From the IMG/VR virus record IMGVR_UViG_3300038312_000193: a DNA stretch of 64,000 nucleotides; one strand, given 5' to 3'. This stretch comes from a virus. Positions 10,523-62,956 of the stretch are shown one piece after another; positions within the stretch are counted from its first letter, which is position 1, and each line of letters starts with the position of its first letter. A program made the position numbers and the translations under genes. Under the pieces are notes generated by a model. That model was not told the DNA's origin, made no database searches, and saw nothing but the letters and a program-made list of their open reading frames with translations.

Positions 10523-10588
10523 ATATATTACATTATCTCCTTTTATATGATAAAATAAAATAAAAATATAAAAGGAGATATAATATAT
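10523..10588 (+). promoter_or_regulatory. Hairpin covering RBS and start of the tyrosine recombinase
   Basis: TATCTCCTTTTATAT (10534-48) is the exact reverse complement of ATATAAAAGGAGATA (10566-80). Confidence 0.65.
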
Positions 10589-11567
10589 GGAATCTTTATT
10601 GAATGAATTACTACAAAAAGTTTTAGAAGTAAATTCTATAAGTTCTAATATTAATTTAATAGAACTTAAAACACATTTTTCTTCTATATTGTATAAGTAT
10701 AATATAAATTATAAAACTGATAATATAGAAGATATTGATTTATCAAATTACATAAATATGTTTTTATCAATTAAAAAATTGGAAGGATTAAGTGATATTA
10801 CTTTAGATACTTATAAACTAGAACTTAATATATTTAACAAAAATATAAACAAATCATTACCTGCAATTACAAGTAATGATATTAGATTGTATTTATCTAA
10901 ATTTCCAAAATTGAAACAAAGTTCTATTGGAAAGAAAATATATGTTCTTAAATCATTCTTTAAAATTATGGTTAGAGAAGAGGTAATAATAAAAAATCCT
11001 ATGAACAAAATTAACGCTCCCAAAAAAGAAAAAAGATTACCAAAAGCATTATCTGAAGAACAAGTAGAAACACTTAGAGAGAATTGTACAACGTTACGTG
11101 AAAAAGCCATATTCGAGCTTTTTATTGCAACGGGTTGCCGTTTAAATGAGTTGTCTCAATTAAATATTAATGATATAAATTGGAAATATCAATCAATAAA
11201 AGTAATAGGAAAAGGTAATTCTGAAAGAATAGTTTATTTTAATTTTAAAGCAACTCATTATTTAAAAAAATACCTAAATAATAGGAATGATAATTGTGAA
11301 GCTTTATTTGTCACTGAAAGAAAAGAATATAGAAGATTATCCAATAGAGGGATACAAAGAATTTTTAATAATCTTGGAGATAAGGCAAATATAAAATTGC
11401 ACGTTCACAAGTGCCGCCACACATTTGCTTCTAATTTATTAAATTCAGGTGCAGACTTAGCATTAGTTCAAGCAATGTTAGGACATAGTTCTCCTGATAC
11501 CACTCAGGTATATTGTCAATTATCTGAGCAAAGTAAATATGATGGATATAGGCGATATGCTTCATAG
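10587..11567 (+). CDS. XerC/D-like tyrosine recombinase, catalytic residues intact
   Basis: SAM-like N-terminal domain; TGCRLNE (R), GKG (K), HKCRH (HxxR), LGH, TTQVY (Y). Confidence 0.95.
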   Translation: MESLLNELLQKVLEVNSISSNINLIELKTHFSSILYKYNINYKTDNIEDIDLSNYINMFLSIKKLEGLSDITLDTYKLELNIFNKNINKSLPAITSNDIRLYLSKFPKLKQSSIGKKIYVLKSFFKIMVREEVIIKNPMNKINAPKKEKRLPKALSEEQVETLRENCTTLREKAIFELFIATGCRLNELSQLNINDINWKYQSIKVIGKGNSERIVYFNFKATHYLKKYLNNRNDNCEALFVTERKEYRRLSNRGIQRIFNNLGDKANIKLHVHKCRHTFASNLLNSGADLALVQAMLGHSSPDTTQVYCQLSEQSKYDGYRRYAS

Positions 11568-11613
11568 CATTAAAATATTAATATAAATATATAGATTAAT
11601 TTTGATTTATAAT

Positions 11614-11677
11614 ATCGTGATAAAACTTTAATTTGGTGTTGATTTTACCCCTTAGAAACGCCGAAATCTAGGCGTTT
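11614..11677. repeat. 12-6-12 palindromic site plus companion 7-8-7 palindrome next to the recombinase
   Basis: ATCGTGATAAAA-CTTTAA-TTTGGTGTTGAT, 12 bp, AAACGCC-GAAATCTA-GGCGTTT. Confidence 0.75.
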
Positions 11678-15687: not shown

Positions 15688-15774
15688 TGGTGCAGGGCGA
15701 GGGACTTGAACCCTCACTCTCAAATGAGAACTACCCCCTCAAAGTAGCGTGTCTGCCTGTTCCACCAGCCCTGC
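15688..15774 (-). tRNA. tRNA-Leu(GAG)
   Basis: GCAGGGC/GCCCTGC acceptor with encoded ACCA, GGTTCAAGTCC T-arm, anticodon loop TT-GAG-GG, long variable arm. Confidence 0.93.
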
Positions 15775-15779
15775 GAGTA

Positions 15780-17504: not shown

Positions 17505-17528
17505 ACATTCAACTCCTCTAATAGATAA

Positions 17529-17561
17529 ATGAGATAACACATAATTTATGTTATCTCATGG
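17529..17561. repeat. Second copy of the integrase inverted repeat upstream of its RBS
   Basis: ATGAGATAAC-ACATAATTTAT-GTTATCTCAT. Confidence 0.65.
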
Positions 17562-22146: not shown

Positions 22147-22167
22147 AACTTTCTCCTTTCAAAAAAA

Positions 22168-22197
22168 ATCAACACCAAATGTCTCTTTGGAACACAG
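22168..22197. repeat. 12-6-12 site abutting the TnpB right end
   Basis: ATCAACACCAAA-TGTCTC-TTTGGAACACAG. Confidence 0.75.
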
Positions 22198-22320
22198 TTG
22201 AAAAACTTTTCCTATTAAACCCAATAGGCTACCAGTCATTAACTAGGTTGTGTCCCGCAACATCTACTACTTCAACTACTTAAACTTATGCTATCCGTAG
22301 ATACTTTAAATTATTATATT
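22177..22320 (-). ncRNA. Putative TnpB omegaRNA (scaffold ending ..TTTTTCAAC, then guide)
   Basis: Non-coding 3' of tnpB with CCTATTGGGTTTAATAGG hairpin and IS200/605-type TCAA(C) end; 5' boundary uncertain. Confidence 0.6.
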
Positions 22321-23485
22321 TAGTAACTTTATATTGTGAGTTGTCGTTAAGAATATTAATTGCTCCATTAACATCTCTATGCATTATATAACCACAATTA
22401 CATTGATAATTTCTACCTTTTGGTGAATTTAAATTTCCACAACAAGGACACCTCTTGGAAGTCCAATATTCTTTAACTTTGATTAATTTAATATTACTTC
22501 TAATTAATTTATTTTCTAATTGTAACATTATCAATCCATAACACCATTGACTTAATTTTTGTCGAGTTTTTCTACTACCCCTCCCTTCTATTTTAGTATT
22601 TCTAGTACAATCATCTAAATCTCCGTAATAAACAATAGAAATATTATTTTGTAAACAATAATCTAAATAAAGCTTAGTGGTTTTATGTACTGCATCTAAG
22701 ATTTTATTATCAGTATCATATTTTAAATTTTGCATTGCTTTACTATATTTTTTATACTGTTTACTTCCTTTAATGCATTTGCTTTGTCTACTTCTTAATT
22801 TAGCTAACTCTTTATTTCTAAGTCTTTTTATACTTCTAATCTTTCTACCAGTAATTATAATTACATTCCCATTATTATCAATTGAAGTTATACTATGTAT
22901 TTCACCTAAATCTATAGCTGATTCATTATTGGATTGAATTAAATGTTGTTTATTTTCTTCTTTATATTTAATAGCTAGTTTTAAACCATTACGATAAACC
23001 AATTCAATCTCTACAATATTATTAGGAATGTTTTTTAGATGGCATTTAATAGGTTTTTGTCTTCTTTGTTCCTTTTGTTTATTTAATATCATTGGTTTTG
23101 CTAGAGTTAAATATTTTTCATCTTTATATATTTTAATATTTTGATATGTCCAACCAGTATTAAAAAATTTCTTTTCTTTATATGGTAGTTTAACTTTATT
23201 ACTATTTTCGTGTTTTGCCATTATTGATTTCCACATTGCATCCCTAGCAGTAACATATTTTATAATTACAAAATTAATACTATTTGCTAATAATATTGGA
23301 ACAGATTTTTTCATCATAAACTGCAATTCAGATTGAGTAAGAGATTTATTAAATTTCTTACGATTTTTTTGATCTGCTTTAACACAAGCATTCCATACTT
23401 TTGCTGAATATTTGTTACATTTCATAAGATAATCATAATCTTTTTTATTACAATTTACTGGCACTATTAATGTTTTATAAAGTAT
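22286..23485 (-). CDS. tnpB: Solo TnpB RNA-guided endonuclease (IS200/IS605 family, IS1341-like, no tnpA)
   Basis: AIDLG (RuvC-I), EYWTSKRCPCCG/CNCG Zn finger, HRDVNGAINI (RuvC-III); probable ATA start at 23485 after GGAGG. Confidence 0.92.
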   Translation of the reverse strand: MLYKTLIVPVNCNKKDYDYLMKCNKYSAKVWNACVKADQKNRKKFNKSLTQSELQFMMKKSVPILLANSINFVIIKYVTARDAMWKSIMAKHENSNKVKLPYKEKKFFNTGWTYQNIKIYKDEKYLTLAKPMILNKQKEQRRQKPIKCHLKNIPNNIVEIELVYRNGLKLAIKYKEENKQHLIQSNNESAIDLGEIHSITSIDNNGNVIIITGRKIRSIKRLRNKELAKLRSRQSKCIKGSKQYKKYSKAMQNLKYDTDNKILDAVHKTTKLYLDYCLQNNISIVYYGDLDDCTRNTKIEGRGSRKTRQKLSQWCYGLIMLQLENKLIRSNIKLIKVKEYWTSKRCPCCGNLNSPKGRNYQCNCGYIMHRDVNGAINILNDNSQYKVTKYNNLKYLRIA

Positions 23486-23517
23486 AATTAACCTCCTTCC
23501 TTATTGTTTTAAATAAT

Positions 23518-23581
23518 ATCAACACCAAACAAACCTTCTGTCATGATTTCATGTTTCACAAACGCCTATTTCTAGGCATTC
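23518..23581. repeat. 12-6-12 site plus companion upstream of tnpB
   Basis: ATCAACACCAAA-CAAACC-TTCTGTCATGAT, 12 bp, AAACGCC-TATTTCTA-GGCATTC. Confidence 0.75.
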
Positions 23582-29243: not shown

Positions 29244-29708
29244 CTATATTATGTCTAATTCACTTATATTTATAAGATTTGAAGTACCATTTTTATTCTT
29301 ATAAAAAGCGTTACCTAACGCACATGTATTAGGTTTATCAGAACACCAAAAAAATTCTATTTCTTCACCATCTTTAAAATCACCATTAAAATATATTCTA
29401 TTATTAATTCTTTTATATTTTGCTTTTAATGGCATATCAAAACCATAATGTTTATATATATTTATCATTTCTTGTTGGTTTAACATATCTATCTCCTTTC
29501 CTTAAATTAAATTGAATATTGGCAGTTCATTTGCCCATATTAAACTAATAATTTCTTCAAGGGATAAATTTAACCCAAGACTTTGTACTTTATTTACTGT
29601 ATCTAAAATATGATTATCTGTATATGGAGTATGCCTTATAATATCATAAATCATATCTATTACTTTTTGATTACCACCACACCAATTAAACCATTCTTCA
29701 TTAGTCAT
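29244..29708 (-). other. Two hypothetical CDS (29244-29486, 29502-29708) between sites 29224 and 29735
   Basis: ORF track, RBSs. Confidence 0.6.
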
Positions 29709-45119: not shown

Positions 45120-45818
45120 TTAAGTATTTATATACCTATACTCACCAAAGTATTCTATTTCTGCTTGCTTTCTAACTTCAACAGCTTCATCGAAAATATC
45201 AAAGTAACCTAAATGAATATGTTTATTATTTATAGTAATATATGCCCTCCATTTTTCTTTATCTTCTCGCCAAACAACTCCTTTAATACCAGATGTATTA
45301 TTACTTTGAGTCCTTCTATTCATTTGATTCTGACTTGGAGTAACTATTCTTAGAAATTCCTTTCGGCAATCAAATTTTTTATGAAAAATATGATCTACCT
45401 CCATATCGTCAGGACAGTTCATAATAATTCTGTGCATAAGTATCTTATTATACCCAGTTACAATATAACCATCTTTGTTAAAATGCCAACTATAATTTTT
45501 TATTTTATTATAGTCTTCTAAATCAAACCAAAATTTTTCTTTTTTAAAAGTCCATCCTACTCCATACTCACCTGATAAATCGTATGTATTATGATTTTTG
45601 TTTATTTGACTTATTTCTTTAATTTTTTCTCTTTGTAAGCAACCGCATGATTTAGTATGTCCACTTCTTAAACTTGATCCCTTTATCACTTTTAAACTAT
45701 TTTCACCTTCACAATTACATTGGCATAACCACTGAGGTTGACCCTGTTTGTCATTTTCTGCCCTTTCTAATACAGTCAATCTTCCAAATGTTTTATTTTT
45801 TAAATCTATAATAGCCAA
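45120..45818 (-). CDS. HNH-AP2 homing endonuclease
   Basis: FGRLTV, WLCQC.C, TKSCGC, VDHI, NTSGIKGV...KWRA.I...HLG.F. Confidence 0.85.
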   Translation of the reverse strand: MAIIDLKNKTFGRLTVLERAENDKQGQPQWLCQCNCEGENSLKVIKGSSLRSGHTKSCGCLQREKIKEISQINKNHNTYDLSGEYGVGWTFKKEKFWFDLEDYNKIKNYSWHFNKDGYIVTGYNKILMHRIIMNCPDDMEVDHIFHKKFDCRKEFLRIVTPSQNQMNRRTQSNNTSGIKGVVWREDKEKWRAYITINNKHIHLGYFDIFDEAVEVRKQAEIEYFGEYRYINT

Positions 45819-48177: not shown

Positions 48178-48203
48178 AACTTCCTCCTTTCGTTTGTATA
48201 TTT

Positions 48204-48232
48204 ATTTTATACTTTTAATAAAAATTTGTCAA
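48204..48232 (-). promoter_or_regulatory. sigmaA promoter of ligA
   Basis: TTGACA-17 bp-TAAAAT. Confidence 0.7.
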
Positions 48233-48270
48233 GCATTTAATTTCATGACCAAAAACTAGGTTGGTTTTAA

Positions 48271-48822
48271 CTATGATAAACCAGCAAACTTGCCATAATA
48301 TTTTTGTCTTGCTTCTTCTGCAATCCTTCCAGCTTCATTAACATCATCAAAATAACCTATTATTATTCGTTTATTATTTCGACACAATGACACTTGCCAT
48401 TTTTCTCTTTGAGAATTCCAAAATACATTTCTATAACCACTTTTATTATTAGAATTTTTGCTTTTACGATTCTGATTATTATTAGGATGTAATGTTACTC
48501 TTAAATTAGATTCTCTATTATTTAATCCATTGTGATCTTTATGGTCTACTCGTATATGTTTCTCAGTAGCATCTGTTAAAAATCTATGTATAGAGATTGT
48601 TTTTGGATGTTCTCCAGATGGATACACCATTGTACGAACATAATATGTTTGTGATCCCTTATCCCATTGAGCATTCCATCTATATCCTGCTTTAATAAGT
48701 TTATCTAATTTTTCTAAATCTACAAAACATTCAAGAATTTTATTCTTATGCTCAATAAATAATACAATATCTTCACCACGTATTTCATAATTATTAAATC
48801 CTTTAAAATATCCCTTTGCTAT
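48271..48822 (-). CDS. HNH-AP2 homing endonuclease (probable ATA start)
   Basis: IHRF, VDHKDHNGLNNRESNLR, NKSGYRNV..KWQV; frame open to ATA 48822 after GAAGGTG. Confidence 0.85.
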   Translation of the reverse strand: MAKGYFKGFNNYEIRGEDIVLFIEHKNKILECFVDLEKLDKLIKAGYRWNAQWDKGSQTYYVRTMVYPSGEHPKTISIHRFLTDATEKHIRVDHKDHNGLNNRESNLRVTLHPNNNQNRKSKNSNNKSGYRNVFWNSQREKWQVSLCRNNKRIIIGYFDDVNEAGRIAEEARQKYYGKFAGLS

Positions 48823-48878
48823 ATTATCACCTTCTTTATATTTTTATTTTAATAACATTACCAAAGACGCATTTGGAT

Positions 48879-49112
48879 TTATTTTATAACATTCATATTT
48901 TTATCAATATCATATTTTTTACTTTCTTCATAAGTAATTTCAAATTCAACCACTTCGGCATTTAAATATTTCTCACAATCTTCAAACATGTTTAAATGAC
49001 CATTAACATTACCAAAAGTTGACCATGCATGACCGTTTTTACTCCAACCACCATACATACCTTTATTAGCATATAAACCTGTTTCTTTATCTCTTATTTT
49101 ATAAACCTTCAA
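48879..49112 (-). CDS. Hypothetical protein
   Basis: GGAGGTG RBS; bounded by sites. Confidence 0.6.
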   Translation of the reverse strand: MKVYKIRDKETGLYANKGMYGGWSKNGHAWSTFGNVNGHLNMFEDCEKYLNAEVVEFEITYEESKKYDIDKNMNVIK

Positions 49113-49198
49113 TAAATTTCACCTCCTATAAATACCAATATAACGACTTTTCTGTTTTAACCAAATCAGACTTTTATAATGATTTTGTTCCTATTTGT

Positions 49199-49882
49199 TT
49201 ATATTATATTTTTGATTCTAGGTGTTATAATTTCATCTATGTATTTTGATTTAGTTTCGGTTGCCAGCCAATTACGATTATTTTTAATACAACTTTCAAT
49301 TTCACTACCTGAACCAGCAAAAGGAATATAAACTAAATCATTTTCATTTGAAGATTGAGTTATTAGGATATCAGCAATTTCTACACTTTTTTCAGATGGA
49401 TGTTTCCTTTTTTTACCTTTAGGGAATTTTACATCTATTAAATTAGATATGGAATTATTATTTACTTGTTTTGCCTTACCAATAGAATTTCTAAATAATA
49501 ATACAAATTCTATTTGTTTCATATACCAACCGAATATTACTTTATTACCTTTATTCAGAACTATTACATTCATCAACTTTAAACCACATTTATCTGCATT
49601 ATACAAAATATCTAATAAATTTTTATCATTACTATAAACATATAAATGAGCAGACGGTTTTAATATTCTTTTAAATTCACTCATATATTGATCAGCTTGA
49701 AGATAATCAAATAATTTTCTTTCTTCTTTATTTCTATAAAATATCCCACTTCTCATTTTCCCTGCTCCTCCACCAGCTTCTATTTTATATGGTGGGTCAG
49801 CGATTATTAAATCAATATATTCATTAGGCAATTGTTTCATAAATTCATTGCAATCTTCATTGTATATTTTATTAATTTCTAT
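49199..49882 (-). CDS. N6A/N4C DNA methyltransferase (beta class), probable ATA start
   Basis: IYNEDC, DPPY, HPSEK, PFAGSGS. Confidence 0.9.
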   Translation of the reverse strand: MEINKIYNEDCNEFMKQLPNEYIDLIIADPPYKIEAGGGAGKMRSGIFYRNKEERKLFDYLQADQYMSEFKRILKPSAHLYVYSNDKNLLDILYNADKCGLKLMNVIVLNKGNKVIFGWYMKQIEFVLLFRNSIGKAKQVNNNSISNLIDVKFPKGKKRKHPSEKSVEIADILITQSSNENDLVYIPFAGSGSEIESCIKNNRNWLATETKSKYIDEIITPRIKNII

Positions 49883-49974
49883 GTTTTTGACTCTCCTTTC
49901 TATAACTTTTAATCAAACAAAAATTTGGTGTTGTTTTTGTAATTTATAAATGCCATTATTTCGGACTTTGTATT

Positions 49975-50739
49975 TTATACTATTAATCTGTTTTTTGCAA
50001 TTTCACAATATTTTTCTTCCAATTCGATGCCAATACATTTTCTTTTTAAATTCCTTGATGCTAATAATGTTGTACCAGAACCGCAAGTGAAATCTAAAAT
50101 AAGTTCGTTTTCTTTTGTGTATGTATTAATTAAATATTCTATAAGAGGCACTGGTTTTTGTGTTGGATGTAAACCACTTTCAGAATTAAATTCTAAAATA
50201 TTATTCGGATAATTTGTATATTTTTGAGTATAATCATTTTGTCTGCTTGGACGTTCTTCAATTGTAGTCCCTTTTCTTGATTTGCCTTTATTGCTTTTTT
50301 GTTTATTAATTTCTATTAACCCTTGAGGATAATATTTCATCATGTTTTTACTGCCATTTGCTATGTTTCCAAAACTAAAACACATTACATCTTCATATTT
50401 TTTCATTGGACTATTTTTAGCATTTAGAAAATTACCTACTTTTGATTTAATCCATTTATAATCATATTTATAAAGTTTTTCATTGCTCAATCTTAAATGA
50501 CTACTAAATGGTTCTGTGCCAAATAAACAAATACATCCATCGTCTACTATTAAATTTTCAAGTCTATCCCATATTTCTTTATAATTAATTACACTATCCC
50601 ATTTACATGCTGTAGTCCCATAAGGTGGATCAGTGATTATTGCATCAAATTTTATACCCTTCTCAATAATCTTATCCATCACTTCTAAACAATCACCTTG
50701 AAATAGTCTTATGTATTCATCTTTATAGTATAATTGCAT
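49975..50739 (-). CDS. N6A/N4C DNA methyltransferase (beta class)
   Basis: GDCL, DPPYG, HPTQKP, DFTCGSGTT. Confidence 0.93.
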   Translation of the reverse strand: MQLYYKDEYIRLFQGDCLEVMDKIIEKGIKFDAIITDPPYGTTACKWDSVINYKEIWDRLENLIVDDGCICLFGTEPFSSHLRLSNEKLYKYDYKWIKSKVGNFLNAKNSPMKKYEDVMCFSFGNIANGSKNMMKYYPQGLIEINKQKSNKGKSRKGTTIEERPSRQNDYTQKYTNYPNNILEFNSESGLHPTQKPVPLIEYLINTYTKENELILDFTCGSGTTLLASRNLKRKCIGIELEEKYCEIAKNRLIV

Positions 50740-50767
50740 CTATAATTAATTCAACCCTCCTTTTATA

Positions 50768-51346
50768 TTATATTTTTACATCACTTTCAACTTCATTACC
50801 CCATACGTCCCAACCTACTCTTTTATTTCTAGCAAACAATTCAATGTAAGGTGCATAACTAACTTTCTCTATCATTTCATACATCTCTTTTGGTTTTTCA
50901 GAATGTTCCCCTCTAGGAGCAACAAATACCGTTTTACCTTGTTGCCTTTTACTATTTAAAGTCTTATATGGCAAAACACCTTTTACACCAAACAAACATA
51001 CTTCATCAAGTCCACGGAAATATTGTCCTAATCCTGCATTTTCAAATTTAAAAGTTTTACCTTCTGAATCAAGACATTCTCCTTTTACCCATGTGATTTT
51101 TGTTTTATATGTAAATCCCCATGCTTTCATAACTTGTAAACCATCTTTAAGAAAATTATTTGTAACCCATAAGTATAAGTGACAATTATCATCTGCTAAA
51201 TTATGTATTGGTAAATTTATAATATCCTTTGTTTTCATTAATGGATAATGTCTATCTGCTCCACGTTTAATCTTTCCTCCACCTGATTCCATCCAAGGAG
51301 GATCGGCATATATTGTTTTATATTTATTAATCTTTTTTACCTCCAT
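50768..51346 (-). CDS. MT-A70 family adenine methyltransferase
   Basis: ADPPW, LYLWVT, HSEKP, IELFAR...GWDVWGNE. Confidence 0.92.
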   Translation of the reverse strand: MEVKKINKYKTIYADPPWMESGGGKIKRGADRHYPLMKTKDIINLPIHNLADDNCHLYLWVTNNFLKDGLQVMKAWGFTYKTKITWVKGECLDSEGKTFKFENAGLGQYFRGLDEVCLFGVKGVLPYKTLNSKRQQGKTVFVAPRGEHSEKPKEMYEMIEKVSYAPYIELFARNKRVGWDVWGNEVESDVKI

Positions 51347-51438
51347 TTTTATATTATTGTTTTATTATGACTTGTGACAAAACCGAAGTTTTGTGTTGAT
51401 TTTTGGATTTATAAAGCCCAATATTACGGGATTCTTGT

Positions 51439-52182
51439 TTAAGCAATTTTGTGATTTTTGACTCTTTCTAAAGATAAATTATAATATTCTTCATCTGTTT
51501 CAAATCCTATGTAATTTCTTTTGGTATTTAAACAAGCTATCGCTGTTGTACCAGAACCCATACAATTATCTAAAACTAATTCATTTTCATTTGTGTATGT
51601 ATTAATTAAGTATTCAAATAATTCCACTGGTTTTTGAGTAGGATGAACTTTTTCTTTCTGATTTGCGTTACCGATTTCAATAATGCTTGTTGGATAGTAT
51701 TCATCATATATTTCTTTTTCTTTAGGTTGATTTATAGTGCCATAACAATCACTTAAAGAATAAAGTTTTCCACCTTTACTTCTCTGTTTTCCTTTTCTCA
51801 TAATTGGATTATATGTAGGCATTTTTTTATAAAAACATAATATTAATTCATGTCTTCTTAAAGGTTGTCTTTTGGCATTTAAAAAACCTGTTGATAATTT
51901 TTTATCCCATATTAAATCATATTTAAATAATTTATTATTACTATTAATTAATTTAGTTGCAAATGGTTGTGTAGCAGTAAAACACATCATCCCATTATCT
52001 TTTATAATTCTTTCATACTGCTCCCATAATGGTTCAAATGGAATTATCTCATCCCATTTATTTCTTGCCGTAACCCCATACGGCAAATCACATAAGATCA
52101 TATCAATACTTTTATCTGGTATTAAACACATACCATTTTCTTTAATACAATCTTCATTATAAATAGTATTCAATTCAATCAA
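51439..52182 (-). CDS. N6A/N4C DNA methyltransferase (beta class)
   Basis: CDLPYG, HPTQKP, DNCMGSGTT. Confidence 0.92.
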   Translation of the reverse strand: MIELNTIYNEDCIKENGMCLIPDKSIDMILCDLPYGVTARNKWDEIIPFEPLWEQYERIIKDNGMMCFTATQPFATKLINSNNKLFKYDLIWDKKLSTGFLNAKRQPLRRHELILCFYKKMPTYNPIMRKGKQRSKGGKLYSLSDCYGTINQPKEKEIYDEYYPTSIIEIGNANQKEKVHPTQKPVELFEYLINTYTNENELVLDNCMGSGTTAIACLNTKRNYIGFETDEEYYNLSLERVKNHKIA

Positions 52183-52491
52183 TTTATGTATTATTATCCT
52201 CCTTATTTTTATTTTATGCTTTTAATAGTTTTTTTTCAGAAAATCATGCCTCACAAACGCCCAAATTTCGGACTTCATTTCTGCACCAAATAGAGAATTT
52301 ATCAACACTCCTCTTTAAATGCCTCGTAACACCCTTTTGTATATTCAATTATTTCCATGTCTTCACAATCATTACAATTAAGACTACAAGAGTATTGCCC
52401 ATCTGTGATTTCTTCTACGTCAGCACACCAACTGCCGTATGTATTACACCATTTAGCCATATTTACCTCCAATCATTATGAAACATAGTTT

Positions 52492-52908
52492 TTATGCTGA
52501 TATTTCTTTTCTTACTCTCATAAGAATTTTGCCCAACATATTCTTACCTCTACCCCTGCACACTCCCCAATATATATCATTCCATGTGTTTCCTTCTATT
52601 AACTCCTCATTACCAGTATCAACAAGTCTTTGTCTTAAATCTTGGTTACGAGTAAACTTATCCTTAACACATTGATACATCACTTCGTCTTTAATATCTT
52701 CCCAATCATTTCTAAGTAAAACATTTCTACCTTTCTTCTTTGCTGTTGAAGGGTCAAGTTGGCAAAATTGTTTTCTACGTTCTATATCTTTTACTTTAGC
52801 AGATTGAAAAGCAGCTTCATTATTTTGGTAAAGTAAATCTTCAAATATTACTGGTGCAGAATAAAAATTACTAAGAAAATAATATTTGCCTTTAAATTCA
52901 TTAATCAT
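52492..52908 (-). CDS. NADAR (YbiA-like) family hydrolase
   Basis: FLSNFY, EAAFQSAK, KKKGR, KF..N..L...L..TG, D.YWG, G.N.LGKILM.VR. Confidence 0.92.
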   Translation of the reverse strand: MINEFKGKYYFLSNFYSAPVIFEDLLYQNNEAAFQSAKVKDIERRKQFCQLDPSTAKKKGRNVLLRNDWEDIKDEVMYQCVKDKFTRNQDLRQRLVDTGNEELIEGNTWNDIYWGVCRGRGKNMLGKILMRVRKEISA

Positions 52909-53033
52909 ATTTATAACCTTCCTTTTAAATCGTGATCAACCTCAAATTTTATTCAAATATTTATCTATATATTGTGCCATCAATTGTTTTATGTCAGAAT
53001 ATATAGTATACTAATCTTTTTATTTTGAGTAAT

Positions 53034-54761
53034 TTATATTATTTTTTGTAGTTTCTCCATATATCCCCTATTAACTATTATTATATTATTATCAAAATTT
53101 AGATGATAAAGTTTAAATCCATTGTAATCATAAATATTGGTTATAACTGCTTTAACATTATTATAATTAATTTCTTTTATGTAATCTCCAATAATGTGTT
53201 GTACTTTAATCTTATTTATAATGAATATATCTCCAATTTCATATTCTTCTCTATCCCATAGTAACTTTCTATCTTCAGGAGAAGCAAAATCTAAATATCC
53301 ATTAAAAGTTCTTCCGTATATTTTATTAATTTTTATTTTACGCCATTCACAATATAAATTATCATCAAAATTCATAAGATCACAATAAGTCTCTTTTAGA
53401 GAATCATTTTTATTACCAATAGCTAAAATATCTCTATTATTATAATTAACCGTATAATATTTTCCATCATCCATTTCTAAAAGATATCCCGCTTTAATAT
53501 CATCTATATTGTACATACCTTTCTCCTTTCTTAACCAATTCGATTTTTGGTTTTAATTTTATAGATTACCAATATTTTATTTCCCCATTTTTTCTTACCT
53601 ACTATTTTTATATTATTTTTTAGTTATAAGTTCTTTTTTTAATCTTTCTACTTCTTCTTCAACAATCATAATAATACATGGTTCACTATCTTCATCATTG
53701 TTAAACTTAACTAATTCCAATTCTTTACCGTTATATTCATTACCATAGATTTTATACATAACCAAATAATCTCCATCATCACAAAGAATTTTATGACTAT
53801 TAGAAAATCTCTTTTTACATTCTTCGTATGTCATATTAATATATCTCCTTTATTTAATTCTCCTGTACAATATTATTATAATCAGTTTCAACGACACATT
53901 TTTCATCAACTCTAATTTGTACTAAATTACATTCACTATCCGCACCTACCACCTTACCTTTAACCCCTTTTAGGATACCATTTAAAATTGTTGCTTCTTG
54001 ATTGACTTTTACAGCCATTATTAATCCTCCTTTACATAATTGTATTTTTTATTTTCTTCTCTTAACGGACACCAATCTGGACTAGATTTTTTATAAACAT
54101 TCATTGGAATAGTTAATGCATCTAAAAAATCATCATCAAAAGTATTACCGTAAGTATCATAATCTGGGACAACATATTCACATACATATAAATATCCGTT
54201 TAAACCGTAATCCTCACAGTTTTCACAGGTCTTGCATTTTGGTGTTTTCATAATATATCATCCTTATTTATTTCTTTATGCTCTTTTTTAAACATATAAT
54301 ATTCATGCTTATTTCCGTCAAATAAAACTCTTTTACAATTTTTACAAGTAAGTTTATAATAGCCTGATTCATAAAAATATTCATCAGGCTCGACACGAAA
54401 TTCTTCTTTCAAATTTTTACAACTACATTTTTTATTATTCTTCATCTTCTATTTCTCCATCTTCCCCTCTAACATTCTTTTTTACAGCTTCCCATAATAA
54501 ATCACATAATTCTATTTGATTATTAGTTAATCGTGCCTCACCCGTTTCAAATAATAATGCTATAGAACATCCATAATCTTCATCTAAAATGATCTGTATA
54601 GGAATATCTTGTGAATAATTATCTCTTAAATATTCTAACATTTCTCCAATAGTAAACAGTTTTCTTTTGGTAATATTAGAATTAGTATCCCATTGCTTTA
54701 AAAATACTTTTTCTTTATAATTCAATTCATCCCATTGTTCTTTTGTAATTTGTTGTTTCAT
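53034..54761 (-). other. Hypothetical CDS cluster (53034-53516, 53613-53834, 54021-54251, 54248-54445, 54435-54761)
   Basis: ORF track, RBSs. Confidence 0.6.
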
Positions 54762-54806
54762 ATTAATTCCTTTTTAATTCATTTTTCTAATAACTTTCAT
54801 ATGTAA

Positions 54807-55165
54807 TATAGAAAGTAATAGTTACCCGAAATACCTACTACTTTCTATAACCGTACCAACCAATACGGATTAGTCTTTTGACAGCAGGGACACGATATTG
54901 TGTTTACTGTTTTTGCTCGACCACAACTATCACTTTCGGGGAGTAATGGTTGAGTTTGATGTTTGATCCACCCTCAGTCTCCGTCAAGGAAACCTACTTC
55001 CCCCTCTTAGTTATAAGAGTCCCCAGATTTTTAGTTTTGTCTGCTTCCCACCCTTTATTCAGACCATGATTGAAATAACAGAGTTTTTTGAATCTCAATC
55101 ATCCCGTATATAATTCCACTACTTTTAATAGAATTTTTTAGCCACTCTGTCATTAGCTAAGTAGT
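54807..55165 (-). ncRNA. Candidate ~360-nt structured non-coding RNA
   Basis: ORF-free, GC-elevated, many hairpins, G-U pairs favour the minus strand, complementary loops CCCGAAA/TTTCGGG. Confidence 0.65.
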
Positions 55166-55271
55166 TTCATTATATACACTCACCAAATTAACTTATAATA
55201 AAATAAAATAAGTATATCAAACTTTATTATGTATTTTTATTATAATTTTTTATATTATAGTTTTAATATAT

Positions 55272-55418
55272 TTAACTAATCTTATTAATTCCATAAAATA
55301 TTACATTAATAATTGCAAAACCAATATTAAGTACCGTTCCACAAATATTTTCTTTTGCCGCAAAATAAGCTGCTAATAGTATACATGCGACTATTAATAT
55401 TAAACTTATAGTAGACAT
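55272..55418 (-). CDS. 48-aa hydrophobic two-helix peptide (not in ORF track)
   Basis: MSTISLILIVACILLAAYFAAKENICGTVLNIGFAIINVIFYG..; GGAGGGGG RBS. Confidence 0.65.
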   Translation of the reverse strand: MSTISLILIVACILLAAYFAAKENICGTVLNIGFAIINVIFYGINKIS

Positions 55419-55471
55419 ATTTTCCCCCCTCCCTGCTTTTAAATATTATTAAGATCAAGCTCTCCTCTATT

Positions 55472-55500
55472 AGTATAATATCATATGTATTATTTGTCAA
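55472..55500 (-). promoter_or_regulatory. sigmaA promoter
   Basis: TTGACA-17 bp-TATACT. Confidence 0.8.
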
Positions 55501-55599
55501 TATTTATTTTTTGCTTTTAATGAAAGTTTTTTATAAAATTCATAGTTCAAGAATCCCAATATTTAGGCATCCATTTCATGATAGAACTAGAATTTTATG

Positions 55600-58500
55600 T
55601 TAATCTTCATTTTCAATATTTATATTAATAAATATTTCATCCTTTACTATTTCTACTTCTTGACCAACATTATGATATTCTGATTCTCCCAACCATTTTA
55701 TTCCTATGTATGATACAGACTTATTATTTCTCATAAAATCAATATGAGTAATGTCACTATATTTATTAACTCTTTCATATTCTGGTTTATTCTTAATTAT
55801 TAATTTTGCTTGCGTTGCACTTTTGTCCAATTCAAAACCGTCATTTTTTCGATAACAAATATTATTTATAAATAATCTTTCTTTAATATCTCCTAACCAT
55901 ATAAATCTAACATCACTCATCGGAACTTGTATTACTTCACAATTTTCAAAAACTATATCAATTCTATCTATTTGTTTTCCCATTACTTCTCCTTTCTAAA
56001 ATCAACACCAAATTGATGATTTATTATATTATTTATTTTGGTAATATAGACATTAATACATTTCTTAAATCTATATTGTCTATTTCTTTTCCAGTTTCAA
56101 CTTCTCTAATAGATAAATTATCTTGTATATCTAAATTTCCTTGAAAAGTAACTATTTTACCTAATTCAGTTTCCCAAACTAATCCTAGAATTTTCTCATG
56201 GTCTACAATAACATACATTGGTTTACTTTCTCTCATATTAACTCCTTTCTTTAATCACTACCAAAGTGATATTCTATTTAATAAAGTGATCCATTTTTTA
56301 TTGATCTCCCAATAATATAACTTATTATTATAACAACTATAGGAACAACATATTTAGGGAATGTAACACAACCTATTATGACCCCTATTATTATACTGAT
56401 TATTAAACCTATTAGTATTAATCCTATTAAACCTAACAATACTGTCACAAGGATATCTAATAAAATATCTTTCAAAATAAAATAATTTCCTTTCTTTAAA
56501 GTTTGAATGAAACGTAGATTTGGTAACGAAATATTATCGTATTTCATAATGTACGCAATATGTAATTCCTTTAACACAACATTCATCTTCTTTATGTTCA
56601 TCAATATATTCACAATCAGAGCAATTCTTTTTCTTATAACATGAATTACATAAACATAATTTAACGCACATATCTTACCTCCAAATTATTATAGAATACA
56701 GTATTGAATTGATTTTATTATTTATATCTTTCATAGTCTTTATCTGTCATTAACTCATATGAAAAATCATTTAATTCACCATATCCTTTTTCTACACATT
56801 CATCTATATGTAAAACACAATCCTCTTCGGAATCAAATCTGTCAGACCATAATTCTCCATTTAATAAGACTTTCCACTCCACAACATCTTCATATTTATA
56901 TCTACTCATATTAATCCTTTCTTAAATATTGTTTTAAAACATTCATTTGGTTTTAACTTTCTACTTTTACCCAAAACCCATCTGCAAAATTTTCTTCAAC
57001 TTCCTTGATAGAATAATTTACATTTTCTTCTATCTCTCCATCTTCTACCCAAGTAATTATATATTTATTATCTTTCATTATTAAATTATATAGGTGATTT
57101 TCAGTAGGAAATTTTTCTATTAAATCTTGACTTAATCTAAATTTTACTTGCAAATTTAAACTCCTTTCTAATATTTAATCCAAAACTAGATTCTGATTAA
57201 ACTCTAATAAATCTATCAAGATATTTTTTCATGACTTCTTCAGTCTTATTAACTTTAATTACTTCATCTATATATTTGTTACAATCTTTACACATATATG
57301 GACTTACATGATTTTTGATATCAGATAATGCCCAAGCATAACCAAGCCTTAAAACACTTTCAAATTGCTTTGTAGGAAACATGTCATTAAATAAGTTTGT
57401 TACTTCTTGATTAATTGGATTTTCTTTACGTCTAAATTCCATAATTTCTTCAATTCTATTTAAGTAATCTTTATCATTAGTCATATGTATTTCCTTTCTT
57501 TATTTTAATAATTTTATAAAAGAGAAATTTGGTTGAAATTAATCTAAAACTTGTTTAATCGTATGTGTTAACCCAACGCCTAATAAAAATAAACAATAGG
57601 CTATTGTAATAATAACAAGGGTAGGTTTATCAAAAACGAACATCATGATAAAACCAATTGGAGCTAAAATGCACAAAGGAACCCCAATAATATAAGGCAA
57701 CAAAGATAAAAAACGATCCATAATTCTCCTTTCTATATTGAGTTAAAAGGGTTATTTGATTACGATTCTAATCCCAACCTTCAGTAACATCTAATACCTC
57801 ACCGCATTCACATTCAACTTTGACGACATCATCTAATCCAGTAGGAATAAACGTATAACTCAATCTTACACCCGTAACGTCACCACGTTTACTTGCATTG
57901 CATTTATGACCAGTTTCAGCATTATCCCATTGTTTAATTTTTTCTATTTGGGTATCACTTAATTCAAATACTCTCATAACTGCCTCCCTTCACTCGTTAT
58001 AAAATCGGGGTTTTAATCTATTAATTGTTTAATTATTTCTTCTTTATCTTTTTTAGATAACTTATCACTTTCTTTTAACAATCCTAAAGCATCTTCTTTA
58101 TGTTCTAGTAGATATTTTTTAATATATTTCGATTTCATTTGTTTGATATAATTAAATTCATTCCATACCTTTTTAATAAAAGGATAAATCTTATCTAAAA
58201 AATCATCGTTATCTATAAGATGTATATATTCCAGAATAAAATTACCAATACTATTATTTTTTAATCCTGTCAATTTGGCATAATCAATATTATCTAATAT
58301 AATTTTTACTTCATTTTCATTTAAATTTTGATATTTATAAATATTTGCAAAATTATTTCCATGCGTTTCAGTCATTTTTTGTCCCATTAATTTAAGATAC
58401 TTTTCTGTTTTTAATAATGGATTTCTCAATACATATTGCCAAGGTATTTCCGAATAATTTTTATTACATTGCTCTTTAACGGATTTCAAAGAACTACTAC

Positions 58501-60538
58501 TCCAAAAATGCAAATTATATTGAAAGAAATTCCCATTGCAATTATAATGATTTCTCATAGTATCAAAAAAGATATCTAATTCTTCTTCATTCCAATCTAT
58601 AGGCAATCTAAAATTATTAATATCTTTTGGTCTTTTTATATTAAGAATATTAAACATTTCAATAATTTCATTTTTGTGTGAATAATATTCTGTTAATACC
58701 CTTAACCATAATGGAGTTTCTTCTGTTGACCAAGATTCTTCATAATCTTTTTCATAAACAACCGCAAGGAATTTAGTGAAATTATCTTTATTAATATTGT
58801 TTGAGATTAAATCAATGAATAGAGAATTTTTACACTTTTCATTCGATAATTTAACTTCCTCTTTTAATTGCCTTGCTTCATTTCGTAATTTTTGATTTTC
58901 TTCTCTTAGTTGAATATTGTTGTTTTTAATATCATCAATTTCGCTTTGAACTGATGCTAAAAGGATAGTTTTACATTTCTCTCTATACTCTATAAACAAT
59001 TCATCTAAAGGCGTTGGCTCATAAATCTGCTCATCATAATATTCATTATATCCATACATTTTTTACTTCCTCCTATATTTATTTTTATAACATTATAAAA
59101 GCTGGATTTGGTATTAATCTTGCTCACCACAAAATCCTTTAACCAACCACTTAAAAGTAGCATACAATTCTTCTAATGATTCAAATTCACTATTAATATT
59201 TAATCCCCTGGTAAACACATCATATATATCTACTTGCTTATTAAGACTATATCCCTGGTTAATCATCCACCCTGTTAAATTATCAAATAAGTGTTTAATA
59301 TATGTCTTCTCTCCATCATGCCCATTTGTAAATTCATACACTGTTTCAATACTTATGGAATACATTTTACTTTCTTTATTATAAGTAATATCAATGTCAT
59401 TCATTGTATATAGATTTGCTTCACTATAAGACGGATCGTTTGCTGATTTGATTCCCCAAATAAATTTATATGTATCTTCGTATTTTTCATATTCTTTAGA
59501 ATATTGATGTTTATTCCATAGTGATTTTAATTTACGAAACATATTATTCTCCTTTATTATTATATTATACATTTAATGTAAAATCAAACATTTATAACGA
59601 TTTTATATACTAATTAGTGTAAGATTTACTTCCATATCATTTTGATAAATATCAATATTTCTTTGTAAAGATTCTTGTAACTGTTTTATTTCATTTTTTA
59701 TTCTTATATCTTTTTCTTTGAATGTTTTATCACCAATCTTTATATTTCCTAATTTTCTTAGTAGTTGAATAATTCATACTTCCTCCTTCTTAATTTGTAG
59801 CATCTGTATTTTTTGGTTTCCTACTTTTCTTTTTCTCTTTACTACTCTCATATACCGATTTCAATAATTGCCCTACATATGTATTAGTACCCTCATAAAA
59901 TATAATCACTTCGGCCTTTTCTTGTTTGTTTAAAGTTTCAAATTCTACAATAAGATGTTGTATTGCTTGCTCTACATTGTTACATATAAGTAGAATGTCA
60001 TCAGAATTCAAACCGATTATATTTGATTTACGTTTCAATATGTATACTCCTTTCTATATATTTATATTATAATTTTAATACAATGTTTGAATAAAATCAA
60101 TAGTTGGTCATATTATTTATTGCAGTTTTAATATTCCTGTTTGCATTTCTTCTAACATAATTATGTATTTATATTTTTCATCTATAATTTCACTTATATT
60201 GCATTCTTTATCTGAATCTTTATGAAAACTAATACCATCTAAATTGCAGGTTTTATAACTTTCTCGATAATCATGACTAATACAATATCCGCATTTGCTT
60301 TTAACACATTTCATTATCAACCCTCCTTTATTTTTACATATTGATTCTTTTATATTAATATTATTGACTCTTCTTTAGATATTGTTAATTTTCCATCTTT
60401 ATCAATATGAATATAACAATCTTCTTTAGGTTCAAGATATATATCACCATTTGCATAATGAATAATAGTAATATTTTCAGCTTCAATAGTTAATTTATTT
60501 TCATCTATTGTAAACATCGAATTATTAATCACAATCAA
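55600..60538 (-). other. Array of about 14 small hypothetical CDS, mostly one per pair of sites (includes 58013-59059, 348 aa)
   Basis: ORF track; most have an RBS and end at or in a palindromic site. Confidence 0.7.
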
Positions 60539-60550
60539 ACCTCCATTTCA

Positions 60551-60925
60551 TTAAGATGCTTTTATCAAACTTTTATGATAATCTTTTAAAAATTGTGGCG
60601 TTTGCATTGTTGTATATCCGACCATTTCTTTTATGATTTTTCTTTTAGATTTAAACGTCATAAGAATATTATTATGTTTTTTATGATACCCCTTACGACC
60701 TAGTATACAATTACATCTATAACAACAAGTTGCTAAATTATATTCGTTATTATTTCCTCCTTTACTTTTAGGAATTATATGATCTAATGTCGCAATATTA
60801 TTAGGCATAGGAGTATTTTTATTGGGATAATATACTATTACCTGTTCACCACAATACAAACAAGTAAAATTATCTCTCTCATATAATTTTATATGATTCA
60901 AATTATCACCTACTTTCATTAGCAA
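60551..60925 (-). CDS. HNH endonuclease
   Basis: RDNFTCLYCG, TLDHIIPKSKGG.N...NL..CC..CN. Confidence 0.88.
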   Translation of the reverse strand: MLMKVGDNLNHIKLYERDNFTCLYCGEQVIVYYPNKNTPMPNNIATLDHIIPKSKGGNNNEYNLATCCYRCNCILGRKGYHKKHNNILMTFKSKRKIIKEMVGYTTMQTPQFLKDYHKSLIKAS

Positions 60926-60944
60926 ATGATGTTTTGGTTATGAT

Positions 60945-62956
60945 TTATCTTCTATATTTAATTCTTATATAAGGCCAAAATAAATCAACTACCCAACCAT
61001 ATATTCTAAGATAAATCTTTTGCCACCATTTTAAATGAAAATTTTCAATATAAAAATATTTCATTTTTCCTCTTGTTGTATTGCTCGAATATATTGATTC
61101 AATTTTACTACCATTTTTAAATTCAATTTTCATAATGCCTCCAAATCTACATTTCATAAAAATCTGATAACATAATATATAAAATCAAAGCATTTCTTTT
61201 GCCAATCTTAGATTCACAATAAGAGATTTTTTCTTCTGGATTAATCCTAACATTAAATTCTACAATAATATTTCTGAATTGTTCCATAAAATTATTAATA
61301 ATTTCATTTCCATCTTCATCGCGACATAATCTACAAATCAATATCCTTAAATATGCACCTGCTTTATCTCCGTCTATTGGTATAACACTATTATAAGCAT
61401 TTTTCAAAAATGTATCATAGGCAATGTAAGATTCTATTGTAAGTTTAACATAATCCTCTATTGGTATTTGATAAACATTTGCTACAGAAGAAGACCTGTA
61501 AAATATTTTTAAAATATCTTCATATGAAATTATTCCTTTAAACCCTGGATATTTTTTAAATTCTTGTTCTACTACGTTGTATAAAACATTGACTGCTACA
61601 TCAAAGTTTTCAATATTTGTATCACATTCTTTCAAATACACTTAATCACCATCCTCCTTTCATTCATTATGAAATGTCTATTTGATTATTACTTTTCATT
61701 TTCTAATTGTGTTATAAAATTCATCATTGCCTTAATAGATAATAAAGCACCTTTCCGAGCCTCAATTGGTATAACATCATTCTTTTTCTTTTGTCCATCA
61801 ATTAATTTTTGTTTTTCTTTTTTAAGGTAATCCAAAACCGCTTTTCTACTTATTAAATCATTATCCATTTTTATACCTCCATTACTTTTAATAGAATACC
61901 GATATTATTCAAATTACTCAATATAAATTGTTAATGAATTATCAATAACTTCAAGTTTTTTAACTATCGCTTCAACATAACTATTCGCTAAATTATCTAA
62001 GGTTTCAAACTCGGCAAATGATCCATATTTCTCACTCTGGAGATAAATTCTAGCATTACTATCTGTACAATATACCTTTGAAATATCCTTTACTTTCATT
62101 TTTAAAATCCTCCTTTTAAAAATCATTATCAAATATAAGTTTCGTTTAATCTATTAACTTATATTTAAAAACAATCTCACGTTTTCCACCACACATATCA
62201 TCAAGTATTTGTTGCATTTTTTTAACTAATTGCTCTCCTGTCATAACTGGTTCATGCGGTAAAGTTTTAGCTATTTTAGGAACTTCGATATATACAACAT
62301 TACAATCAGTCCACTTTTTTATTTTAACGCCCATTTGCTCCCATGCCCCTAACATCCCTTTAACTATTAATTCATTCATAAAAATTACCTTCTTTCTTAG
62401 ATAAGTTAATCTATAGGGAGAAGCGGAATATTCTCGTCAGAATATTTTCACTACCACTTCTCCCACATGTCAAAAAGGTTGATGGACTCAGTAGTTAGCC
62501 CATCTAGCTAACATATAAAAATCAAATGCTAATTCTATATTAACATAAATTATCTATATCTTAATATCAATAATACCACACTCAGCATCATTGTCAACAT
62601 ATTTATTTTATATTTTTAATTAAAAATGAGGATAGAACTTCTTCTTATCCTCTATCTTTATGCCAATGGATTACAACTTCTCTACATTCATCAAAAGTAT
62701 TAAACATTAATCCATATTTTAATGAATTATAAGAAACGTATAAATCACAATTATCTTTTATACATTGCTCTAATCCACAACGTTTTTTAAAACAAGTAAT
62801 ATAAAAATGGTAATTACCATTTGGTATGTGAAAAATAAAACTTACCAACCCTGTTTCTCTATTTTTATGTTGCCAAGTTTCATATACTTTTCTTTTTTTA
62901 ATTTTTTGAAATTTCACTTTGTCATTCTCCACTCTTATTAAATATGTATTAGGCAT
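60945..62956 (-). other. Further small hypothetical CDS (60945-61157, 61147-61641, 61914-62132, 62146-62379, 62645-62956)
   Basis: ORF track. Confidence 0.6.
62570..62597 (-). promoter_or_regulatory. sigmaA promoter with extended -10, heading the accessory array
   Basis: TTGACA-16 bp-TATTAT with TG at the extended -10 position. Confidence 0.7.

Follow-up and report, generated by a model that had tools for sequence, protein, structure and literature searches.

Ordered 6-bp spacers in the intergenic palindromes of an SPbeta-like Clostridium phage and their possible role in cassette exchange

The 64,000-nt viral sequence IMGVR_UViG_3300038312_000193 from IMG/VR (hereafter the window, meaning the whole stretch that was analysed) carries an array of about 23 palindromic sites on the minus strand, from 48248 to 62145, that follow the template ACCAAA-N6-TTTGGT. 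Each site has a different 6-bp centre (hereafter the spacer) and lies between a stop codon and the next ribosome-binding site in a series of small accessory genes. Judged from sequence comparison with related phages, the spacers track the genomic slot and not the neighbouring gene. We regard it as an evenly balanced proposition that the array is a phage counterpart of the dif modules of Acinetobacter, with core-type recombination sites, slot-specific exchange and a phage recombinase as the proposed catalyst.

Sites and their spacers across related phages

The comparison covered 25 related loci. Exact protein-sequence look-ups returned near-identical but mosaic contigs that derive from several fermentation and bioreactor metagenomes, and more distant relatives were added through pattern scans and protein scans. 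The array had no match among GenBank phages by megablast, and an exact search of IMG/VR with the window and a search of the same database with the perfect 30-bp palindrome returned nothing. The element is a large SPbeta-like phage of a Clostridium phage family, and its closest genome-bin relative carries the label Clostridium sp. Every spacer quoted by the first-pass annotation of this DNA was recovered at its place, inside a palindrome of an A-run and a T-run. The sites of the array are as follows (left arm, spacer and right arm, with the earlier spelling of the spacer where one was quoted):

62128..62145, minus strand: site ACGAAA CTTATA TTTGAT
61669..61686, minus strand: site ATCAAA TAGACA TTTCAT; the sole junction (against L019) with an unshared spacer
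61140..61157, minus strand: site ATGAAA TGTAGA TTTGGA; the L019 homology block stops within the right arm
60921..60938, minus strand: site ACCAAA ACATCA TTTGCT
59095..59112, minus strand: site ACCAAA TCCAGC TTTTAT; spacer with two left and two right contexts (window, L019, L021)
57999..58016, minus strand: weaker site TTAAAA CCCCGA TTTTAT; quoted as TCGGGG
57743..57760, minus strand: weaker site ATCAAA TAACCC TTTTAA; quoted as GGGTTA
57516..57533, minus strand: site ACCAAA TTTCTC TTTTAT; left flank and spacer also present in L001 and L019, followed by three different right arms and downstream genes
56934..56951, minus strand: site ACCAAA TGAATG TTTTAA; spacer in three unrelated contexts (window, L019, L018)
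56507..56524, minus strand: site ACCAAA TCTACG TTTCAT
56260..56277, minus strand: site ATAGAA TATCAC TTTGGT
56007..56024, minus strand: site ATAAAT CATCAA TTTGGT(GTTGAT)
53534..53551, minus strand: site ACCAAA AATCGA ATTGGT
52935..52952, minus strand: site ATAAAA TTTGAG GTTGAT; spacer with at least three left and four right contexts
52478..52495, minus strand: site ATAAAA ACTATG TTTCAT; quoted as CATAGT; the L019 block begins in the left arm
52285..52302, minus strand: site ATAAAT TCTCTA TTTGGT; spacer also present in IMG/VR relatives
51377..51394, minus strand: site ACAAAA CTTCGG TTTTGT; quoted as CCGAAG
49912..49929, minus strand: site ACCAAA TTTTTG TTTGAT; spacer in five contexts
49160..49177, minus strand: site ATAAAA GTCTGA TTTGGT; quoted as TCAGAC; the L019 block stops in the right arm
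48860..48877, minus strand: site TCCAAA TGCGTC TTTGGT; quoted as GACGCA; the L019 block begins in the left arm
48248..48265, minus strand: site ACCAAC CTAGTT TTTGGT; quoted as AACTAG; upstream of the ligase promoter; spacer also present in relatives G003 and G004

Homology blocks between near-identical relatives end sharply, and about 16 of the 37 distinct block ends fall inside sites, where blocks start at site positions 3-4 or end at positions 12-16. Thus, arm bases 1-3 and 16-18 go along with the gene that flanks them, and AAA-spacer-TTT is common to both partners; these limits are compatible with a recombinase cleaving at the borders of the central region. Where one flank of a site is orthologous and the other is not, the spacer is kept in 13 of 14 junctions, with the break at the border between arm and spacer, both when the left flank is shared (n = 7: TTTCTC, TGTAGA, TGGAGG, TTTGAG, GTCTGA, TCCAGC, and TTTTTG) and when the right flank is shared (n = 6: TAATGC, TTTGAG, TCCAGC, ACTATG, TGCGTC, and CTAGTT). 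The lone exception, a weak one, is the junction at 61669; were crossovers confined to the conserved arms of sites that differ in their spacers, about 50% of spacers should have switched.

A wider screen yielded eight pairs classed as having a shared left flank and a different spacer; six of these share merely a repeated hairpin (GGGATTC-type) at different slots, and the remaining two are true orthologues in which the spacer is kept. This companion hairpin (GAATCCC-loop-GGGATTC, or an AACGCC/GGCGTT variant) lies about 18 nt upstream of many sites (for example, at ~29520-29560, 55545-55570, 51400-51440, and 49940-49975, and in L049, L050, and L053) and is repeated between slots, so that flanks can look orthologous when they are not. 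Assembly chimeras are an unlikely source of the junctions, because the shared core of 12-18 nt is far below assembler k-mers, and the same junctions occur in independent assemblies (L028/L029, L035/L039, and L029/L022).

The spacers also recur where the surrounding DNA does not. Across 163 unique site contexts, 31 pairs have identical spacers and unrelated sequence on both flanks, against 6.5 expected from column shuffles (P < 0.001; the maximum was 20 in 1000 shuffles). A smaller first set gave 7 such pairs against 1.5 expected and no excess of pairs that differ by one mismatch, which suggests that spacer sharing reflects identity by descent and not a composition effect. Five contexts were found for TTTTTG, four each for TAATGC and TTTGAG, and three each for TGAATG and TTCGGG; the three TGAATG contexts have only the 18-nt site in common, with no similarity of flanking DNA or protein. 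Spacer order is collinear in all 33 locus pairs that share two or more spacers, and no exchange between sites of different slots was seen in these pairs. One and the same pair of spacers can frame unrelated cargo: between TTTCTC and TGAATG lie two genes in the window (564 nt) and two others in L019 (612 nt), with a blastn cover of 0%; CTTCGG and TTTTTG bound 1447 nt with two genes in the window, as against 218 nt in each of G003 and G004; and TTTCGA to TCTCTA spans 841 nt in one relative and 419 nt in another. The spacers are, moreover, more conserved than the outer arm bases.

The first-pass annotation had read the spacers as a possible address code, which would keep the array from deleting itself and yet permit slot-specific exchange between co-infecting relatives, and had posed the question of whether they follow the slot or the neighbouring gene. 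The answer given by the relatives is the slot, since the spacer is retained when either neighbour is replaced; free variation of spacers between orthologous sites was not found, and the recurrence, the collinear order and the unrelated cargo between identical spacer pairs all support the address reading. The argument originally offered for it, that all spacers are distinct, is correct as an observation for the ~23 sites of the array, and in the strict set for 11 of 11 spacers in 48248-62145 and 25 of 25 in the minus-strand part of the window. As evidence, distinctness alone carries no weight, because random 6-mers nearly always all differ (P = 0.98 with spacer composition and P = 0.95 with genome composition). 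Similarly, no spacer occurs twice in one genome of the sample, and the same is expected by chance. The earlier remark that the spacers are relatively GC-rich was borne out: their GC content is 44% vs 27.6% in 84 other AAA-N6-TTT contexts of the window (Fisher p = 0.009), in a window with a G+C content of 26% (74% A+T) and intergenic DNA at 24%, below the spacers; in 55 non-redundant sites from the window and relatives, the spacer GC content is 41.5%.

A logo derived from these 55 sites (from the window and seven related loci) reads AAAA-ATCA-nn-ACCAAA-N6-TTTGGT-nn-TGAT, a site of about 30 bp with two inverted 12-bp arms (ATCAnnACCAAA), each composed of an inner element (ACCAAA/TTTGGT) and an outer element (ATCA/TGAT) with two free bases between them. 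Matches at 10 or more of the 12 arm positions number 15 in non-coding DNA, which makes up 11.6% of the sequence, and three in coding DNA, an intergenic enrichment of about 38-fold; TTTGGT and CCAAAT are enriched 4-5-fold in intergenic DNA. The arm spacing is fixed at 6 bp: there are 15 non-coding matches at N6, one at N9 and none at N3, N4, N5, N8, or N10, and the six at N7, uninspected, may be one-base shifts of N6 sites. Whole-window counts of CAAA-N6-TTTG and CCAAA-N6-TTTGG (2 mismatches) show no enrichment, which is visible only once location and the C/G positions are taken into account. In the 3.1-Mb Clostridium metagenome-assembled genome (MAG) that contains a relative, 12 of 25 matches, including all three perfect ones, lie on a 149-kb phage contig, whereas the 13 matches off this contig are at the control level (11). 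A host-wide repeat, such as a repetitive extragenic palindrome (REP)-like element, is ruled out by this distribution. Based on intergenic enrichment, fixed spacing and restriction to the phage contig, the sites are real and not chance patterns.

Candidate recombinase and proposed cassette exchange

The late region on the plus strand encodes an intact tyrosine recombinase that is followed by a site of the same type:

10587..11567, plus strand: Xer-like tyrosine recombinase, 326 aa, with catalytic R, K, HxxR, H, and Y present
11620..11637, plus strand: site ATAAAA CTTTAA TTTGGT(GTTGAT), 53 nt past the recombinase stop

The protein matches PF00589 (3.5e-40) and aligns to XerD (1a0p) and to a XerC-like protein (4a8e) with R, K, HxxR, H, and Y all aligned; its structure matches are to XerC-like (4e-37) and XerD (6e-32) proteins, and to IntI4 over the last 60 residues only. 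The adjacent site is the only strong one in the 15-kb late region. In G003 and G004, a recombinase homologue with 44% identity is likewise followed, 36 nt past its stop, by a site with the same CTTTAA centre. In the MAG relative, contig C25 carries a Xer-like gene of 24-27% identity that is preceded by a site at a distance of 70 nt; this gene adjoins a gene with a Cu_amine_oxidN1 domain, of the kind found in the late region of the window, and apparently also lies in a late region. From the adjacent site alone, we infer that the recombinase at 10587..11567 is a candidate cognate enzyme. A large serine recombinase (586 aa; 15688-17540) directly adjoins tRNA-Leu(GAG), with lysis genes on its other side, and is probably the integration module, in which case the tyrosine recombinase would be dispensable for integration.

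Under the exchange model that we propose, the palindromes would be core-type recombination sites in which two inverted 12-bp arms (ATCA-nn-ACCAAA) surround a central region of exactly 6 bp. Every slot boundary would have its own central region, and the order of these regions would be preserved among related phages whose intervening genes are not the same. Exchange would take place between co-infecting or resident relatives at sites with matching central regions, with crossovers at the borders between arm and central region, the outer arm bases travelling with the cargo and the central region persisting. The catalyst would be a phage tyrosine recombinase, for which the Xer-like protein is the candidate. 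The fuller version of this model, an ordered scaffold of ~40 mutually incompatible sites at which the phage's own Xer-like recombinase swaps single accessory genes slot by slot with relatives, we hold tentatively, as slightly short of an even chance. Overall, the interpretation made in the first-pass annotation is partly supported: the slot comparison favours the address idea, and we infer the enzymology, namely the identity of the binding protein, site-specific catalysis and a block by mismatched centres.

Several observations weigh against exchange by a dedicated enzyme. Retention of spacers and collinearity would also be expected from homology-dependent exchange, which the identical core of 12-18 bp could guide. 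About 57% of the mosaic breakpoints fall outside the sites: inside genes, at ribosome-binding sites or start codons, and at A-tract boxes (see section "Other repeats and genome context"), so that general recombination also operates in this region. Because the relatives stem from a small number of related bioreactor and fermentation metagenomes, their junctions cannot all be counted as independent. In many sites one arm is poor (e.g., TTTTAT). Finally, the recombinases beside the sites are very divergent (24-44% identity), whereas the arm consensus is constant, which is unexpected if these enzymes read the arms.

These points bear on the principal rival, which we judge unlikely but well short of negligible: the sites would serve a dimeric phage DNA-binding protein (an early regulator or a nucleoid organiser) as operators or in some other binding role, with general or short-homology recombination by a phage annealing protein or host RecA resolving there because the sites are the sole conserved islands in a hypervariable region, and with the spacers as passive passengers. 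Palindromic half-sites that are conserved in sequence at a fixed spacing are in keeping with such a protein, as are the location of the sites, 3-33 nt upstream of ribosome-binding sites at most junctions, and the constancy of the arms while the recombinases diverge; the breakpoints outside the sites are also as in the shuffling of promoter early stem-loops (PeSLs) of T4 by homologous recombination (PMC2839356). The first-pass annotation had noted that simple operators would have free spacers, and this version is weakened, since free spacers should drift, yet those of the array are retained at junctions, recur with unrelated flanks and outlast arm positions 1-3 and 16-18. Furthermore, a -35/-10 pair between site and ribosome-binding site is absent at most junctions, the GC-rich centres are unexplained by an operator, and the exclusively collinear exchange differs from that of PeSLs, which recombine between neighbouring elements.

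A role in RNA, with the sites forming intercistronic hairpins that terminate, process or stabilise polycistronic early transcripts, is improbable. In its favour, the sites occupy the transcribed strand in the gaps between one stop codon and the ribosome-binding site of the next gene, are preceded by A-runs and followed by T-runs, and a few fold well, such as that at 51377 with its UUCG loop (-5.6 kcal/mol, z = -3.2). However, minimum free energies range from 0 to -5.6 kcal/mol, four of 12 sites remain unfolded, and the z-scores mostly lie close to 0. Compensatory changes are absent, and imperfect arms present C-A and C-U clashes instead of wobble pairs; no covariation was detected at paired arm positions in the 55-site set, in which complementarity is no higher than column composition predicts, and the arms are therefore conserved as sequence. 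The recombinase-adjacent copy keeps the order of companion hairpin and site on the minus strand, with the gene on the plus strand (one site, judged by eye), and an Rfam search found nothing. The conserved arm sequence, the weak folds and the negative Rfam search together point to a double-stranded DNA element that is read by a dimeric protein, not to an RNA structure. An intrinsic terminator or stable intercistronic hairpin, which would call for a stable G+C-rich stem ahead of a U-run, was also considered and rejected on account of these weak folds.

Least probable, and to be set aside on present evidence, are scars or coupling sequences of homology-independent (Tn916-like) insertion, raised by the first-pass annotation as an alternative, or chance in AT-rich DNA: spacer composition is nearer to uniform than that of the genome, and AAA-N6-TTT is common in DNA that is 74% A+T, but scars would not be conserved, ordered and common to phages with different cargo, and chance is excluded by the enrichment, spacing and phage-contig restriction described above.

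Other repeats and genome context

The plus strand of the window from 1 to 15.3 kb encodes tail, lysis and related late genes together with the tyrosine recombinase, and the minus-strand genes from 16 to 64 kb include a PolIII-alpha-type polymerase, helicases, NrdD, TnpB, and a NAD-dependent ligase. The dense array of small genes of unknown function occupies 48-64 kb, along with methyltransferases, a NADAR protein and HNH endonucleases. In near-identical metagenome contigs, a MrpR/SroF-family gene and a DndB-like gene lie just past the position of the window end (L001:3553-5898); a search with MrpR gave no hit in IMG/VR and five short metagenome loci. Upstream of these DndB-like and MrpR-like lysogeny genes are an AgrB-family gene (L001:1590-2207) and a small ORF (L001:2412-2639; 75 aa), which hints at an Agr-type peptide signal in place of the arbitrium of Bacillus SPbeta phages.

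A second repeat of about 24 bp, the non-palindromic A-tract box ATTAAAAnTATAAAATAAATATA, lies on the minus strand and overlaps or abuts sigma-70-type promoters:

48197-48231, 52204-52238, 55499-55533, 60057-60091, 62598-62632, and 11572-11598, and near 29.7, 26.8, and 21.1 kb: A-tract boxes

The box at 48197-48231 overlaps the -10 element of the ligase promoter, and one mosaic breakpoint stops exactly at a box (window 55500). The resemblance to the phi3T SroF box is a loose one (15/24 matches by eye, in AT-rich DNA). From its sequence and placement, the A-tract box appears to be a likelier operator of the MrpR-like repressor than the palindromes.

Two further sites frame a solo TnpB gene (22286..23464, minus strand) and a 139-nt non-coding stretch downstream of it, forming a 'cassette' (22147-23541) outside the 48242-62655 region treated by the first-pass annotation:

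22174..22191, minus strand: site TCCAAA GAGACA TTTGGT, downstream of the TnpB cassette
23524..23541, minus strand: site ACAGAA GGTTTG TTTGGT(GTTGAT), upstream of the TnpB gene

Both framing sites end in TTTGGTGTTGAT, and TTGAT is the transposon-associated motif (TAM) of ISDra2 TnpB. The sequence directly past the putative TnpB guide-RNA scaffold is the next site.

Free-standing homing-type endonuclease genes occur in and around the arrays (45120-45818, 48271-48630, L001:503-1597, L001:2712-3452, and L066:1299-2036); they comprise paralogues of the HNH_3 plus AP2 type and, immediately upstream of the tyrosine recombinase, a GIY-YIG gene, and could add to local gene conversion. Upstream of the ORF at 48271..48630, a 248-nt 'gap' (48631-48878) is coding-like by eye; if it codes, the HNH-AP2 gene probably starts earlier, with an unusual start codon or a frameshift. 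A stretch of 565 nt without genes (54762-55326) has locally high G+C and strong self-complementarity; pieces of it are conserved in L021 (85-96% identity), Rfam gives no match, and the stretch may represent a structured RNA.

Comparison with known systems

Phage genomes are mosaics jointed at gene boundaries, and it has long been argued, since the modular theory, whether the joints reflect random illegitimate events sorted by selection or dedicated linker sequences. In the phages compared here the joints are readable at base resolution, within a defined palindrome and beside a conserved, ordered 6-bp label that is kept while the cargo changes; no description of a phage array of this sort was found in the literature searched. 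If the scaffold model is true, the array would be a natural form of recombinase-mediated cassette exchange and would give the 'linker' model of modular evolution in phages an enzymatic footing. If a phage recombinase acts in this way, accessory genes, those for counter-defence included, would have a new route of flow; the array would then parallel, in a phage, the dif modules by which resistance genes move on plasmids, and would offer a natural set of orthogonal sites.

Dispersed intergenic repeats are known from SPbeta-like phages that encode a MrpR-family protein. The SPBRE is a 15-bp motif at about ten promoters (PMC10516654), and the SroF protein of phi3T, as a monomer, recognises an A-tract box of 26 bp that is not palindromic (bioRxiv 10.1101/2025.11.27.690993). 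The description of the SroF box fits the A-tract boxes of the window (D1 family) and not the palindromes, for which a MrpR/SroF operator was rejected, as they are palindromic and mostly off promoters.

Short conserved intergenic elements that flank small non-essential genes in hyperplastic regions, and bound insertions, deletions and replacements there, are also known as the PeSLs of T4-type phages (PMC2839356, PMC4122927). A T4 PeSL combines a sigma-70 promoter with a terminator hairpin, and homologous recombination between neighbouring non-allelic copies gives rise to mini-circles. In contrast, most sites of the array lack a promoter or a stable hairpin, each position has a unique 6-bp centre, and only allelic, collinear exchange was seen; the missing -35/-10 pairs at most junctions and the weak hairpins led us to reject identity with PeSLs.

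The array resembles integron cassettes (IntI, attC, attI) in its small, mostly promoterless genes of one orientation, each followed by an imperfect inverted repeat, and in the tyrosine recombinase encoded nearby. However, attC sites are 57-141 bp long, with R''-L''...L'-R' boxes, and act as a folded single strand with extrahelical bases and one crossover point (G/TT), whereas the phage sites measure 18-30 bp, have arms conserved in sequence and show breaks on both sides of the centre. Identity with attC was rejected on site size, absent covariation and a recombinase that is Xer-like and not IntI-like.

The use of identical arms with incompatible spacers is familiar from heterospecific lox/FRT sites, at which exchange is limited to matching pairs and a cassette between two different spacers can be swapped without deletion. 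That arrangement is engineered, with 13-8-13 sites; the one described here is natural and comprises ~40 or more different centres per genome.

The closest likeness is to the pdif/dif modules of Acinetobacter, which are acted on by XerC/XerD: there are many sites per replicon, each with two arms of ~11-12 bp and a 6-bp spacer, and the spacers vary from site to site and are comparatively rich in G+C. For XerCD to recombine two pdif sites, their 6-bp spacers must be the same or almost the same, and replacement of a single dif module takes place between sites whose spacers agree on each side (PMC13141974). Unlike dif modules, the array belongs to a phage and its candidate enzyme is phage-encoded, and its cargo runs in one direction within operons, in modules of single small genes (~0.2-1.5 kb). 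The arms are symmetric, without the alternation of C/D modules seen at pdif sites, and this symmetry suggests the action of one recombinase instead of a XerC/XerD pair.

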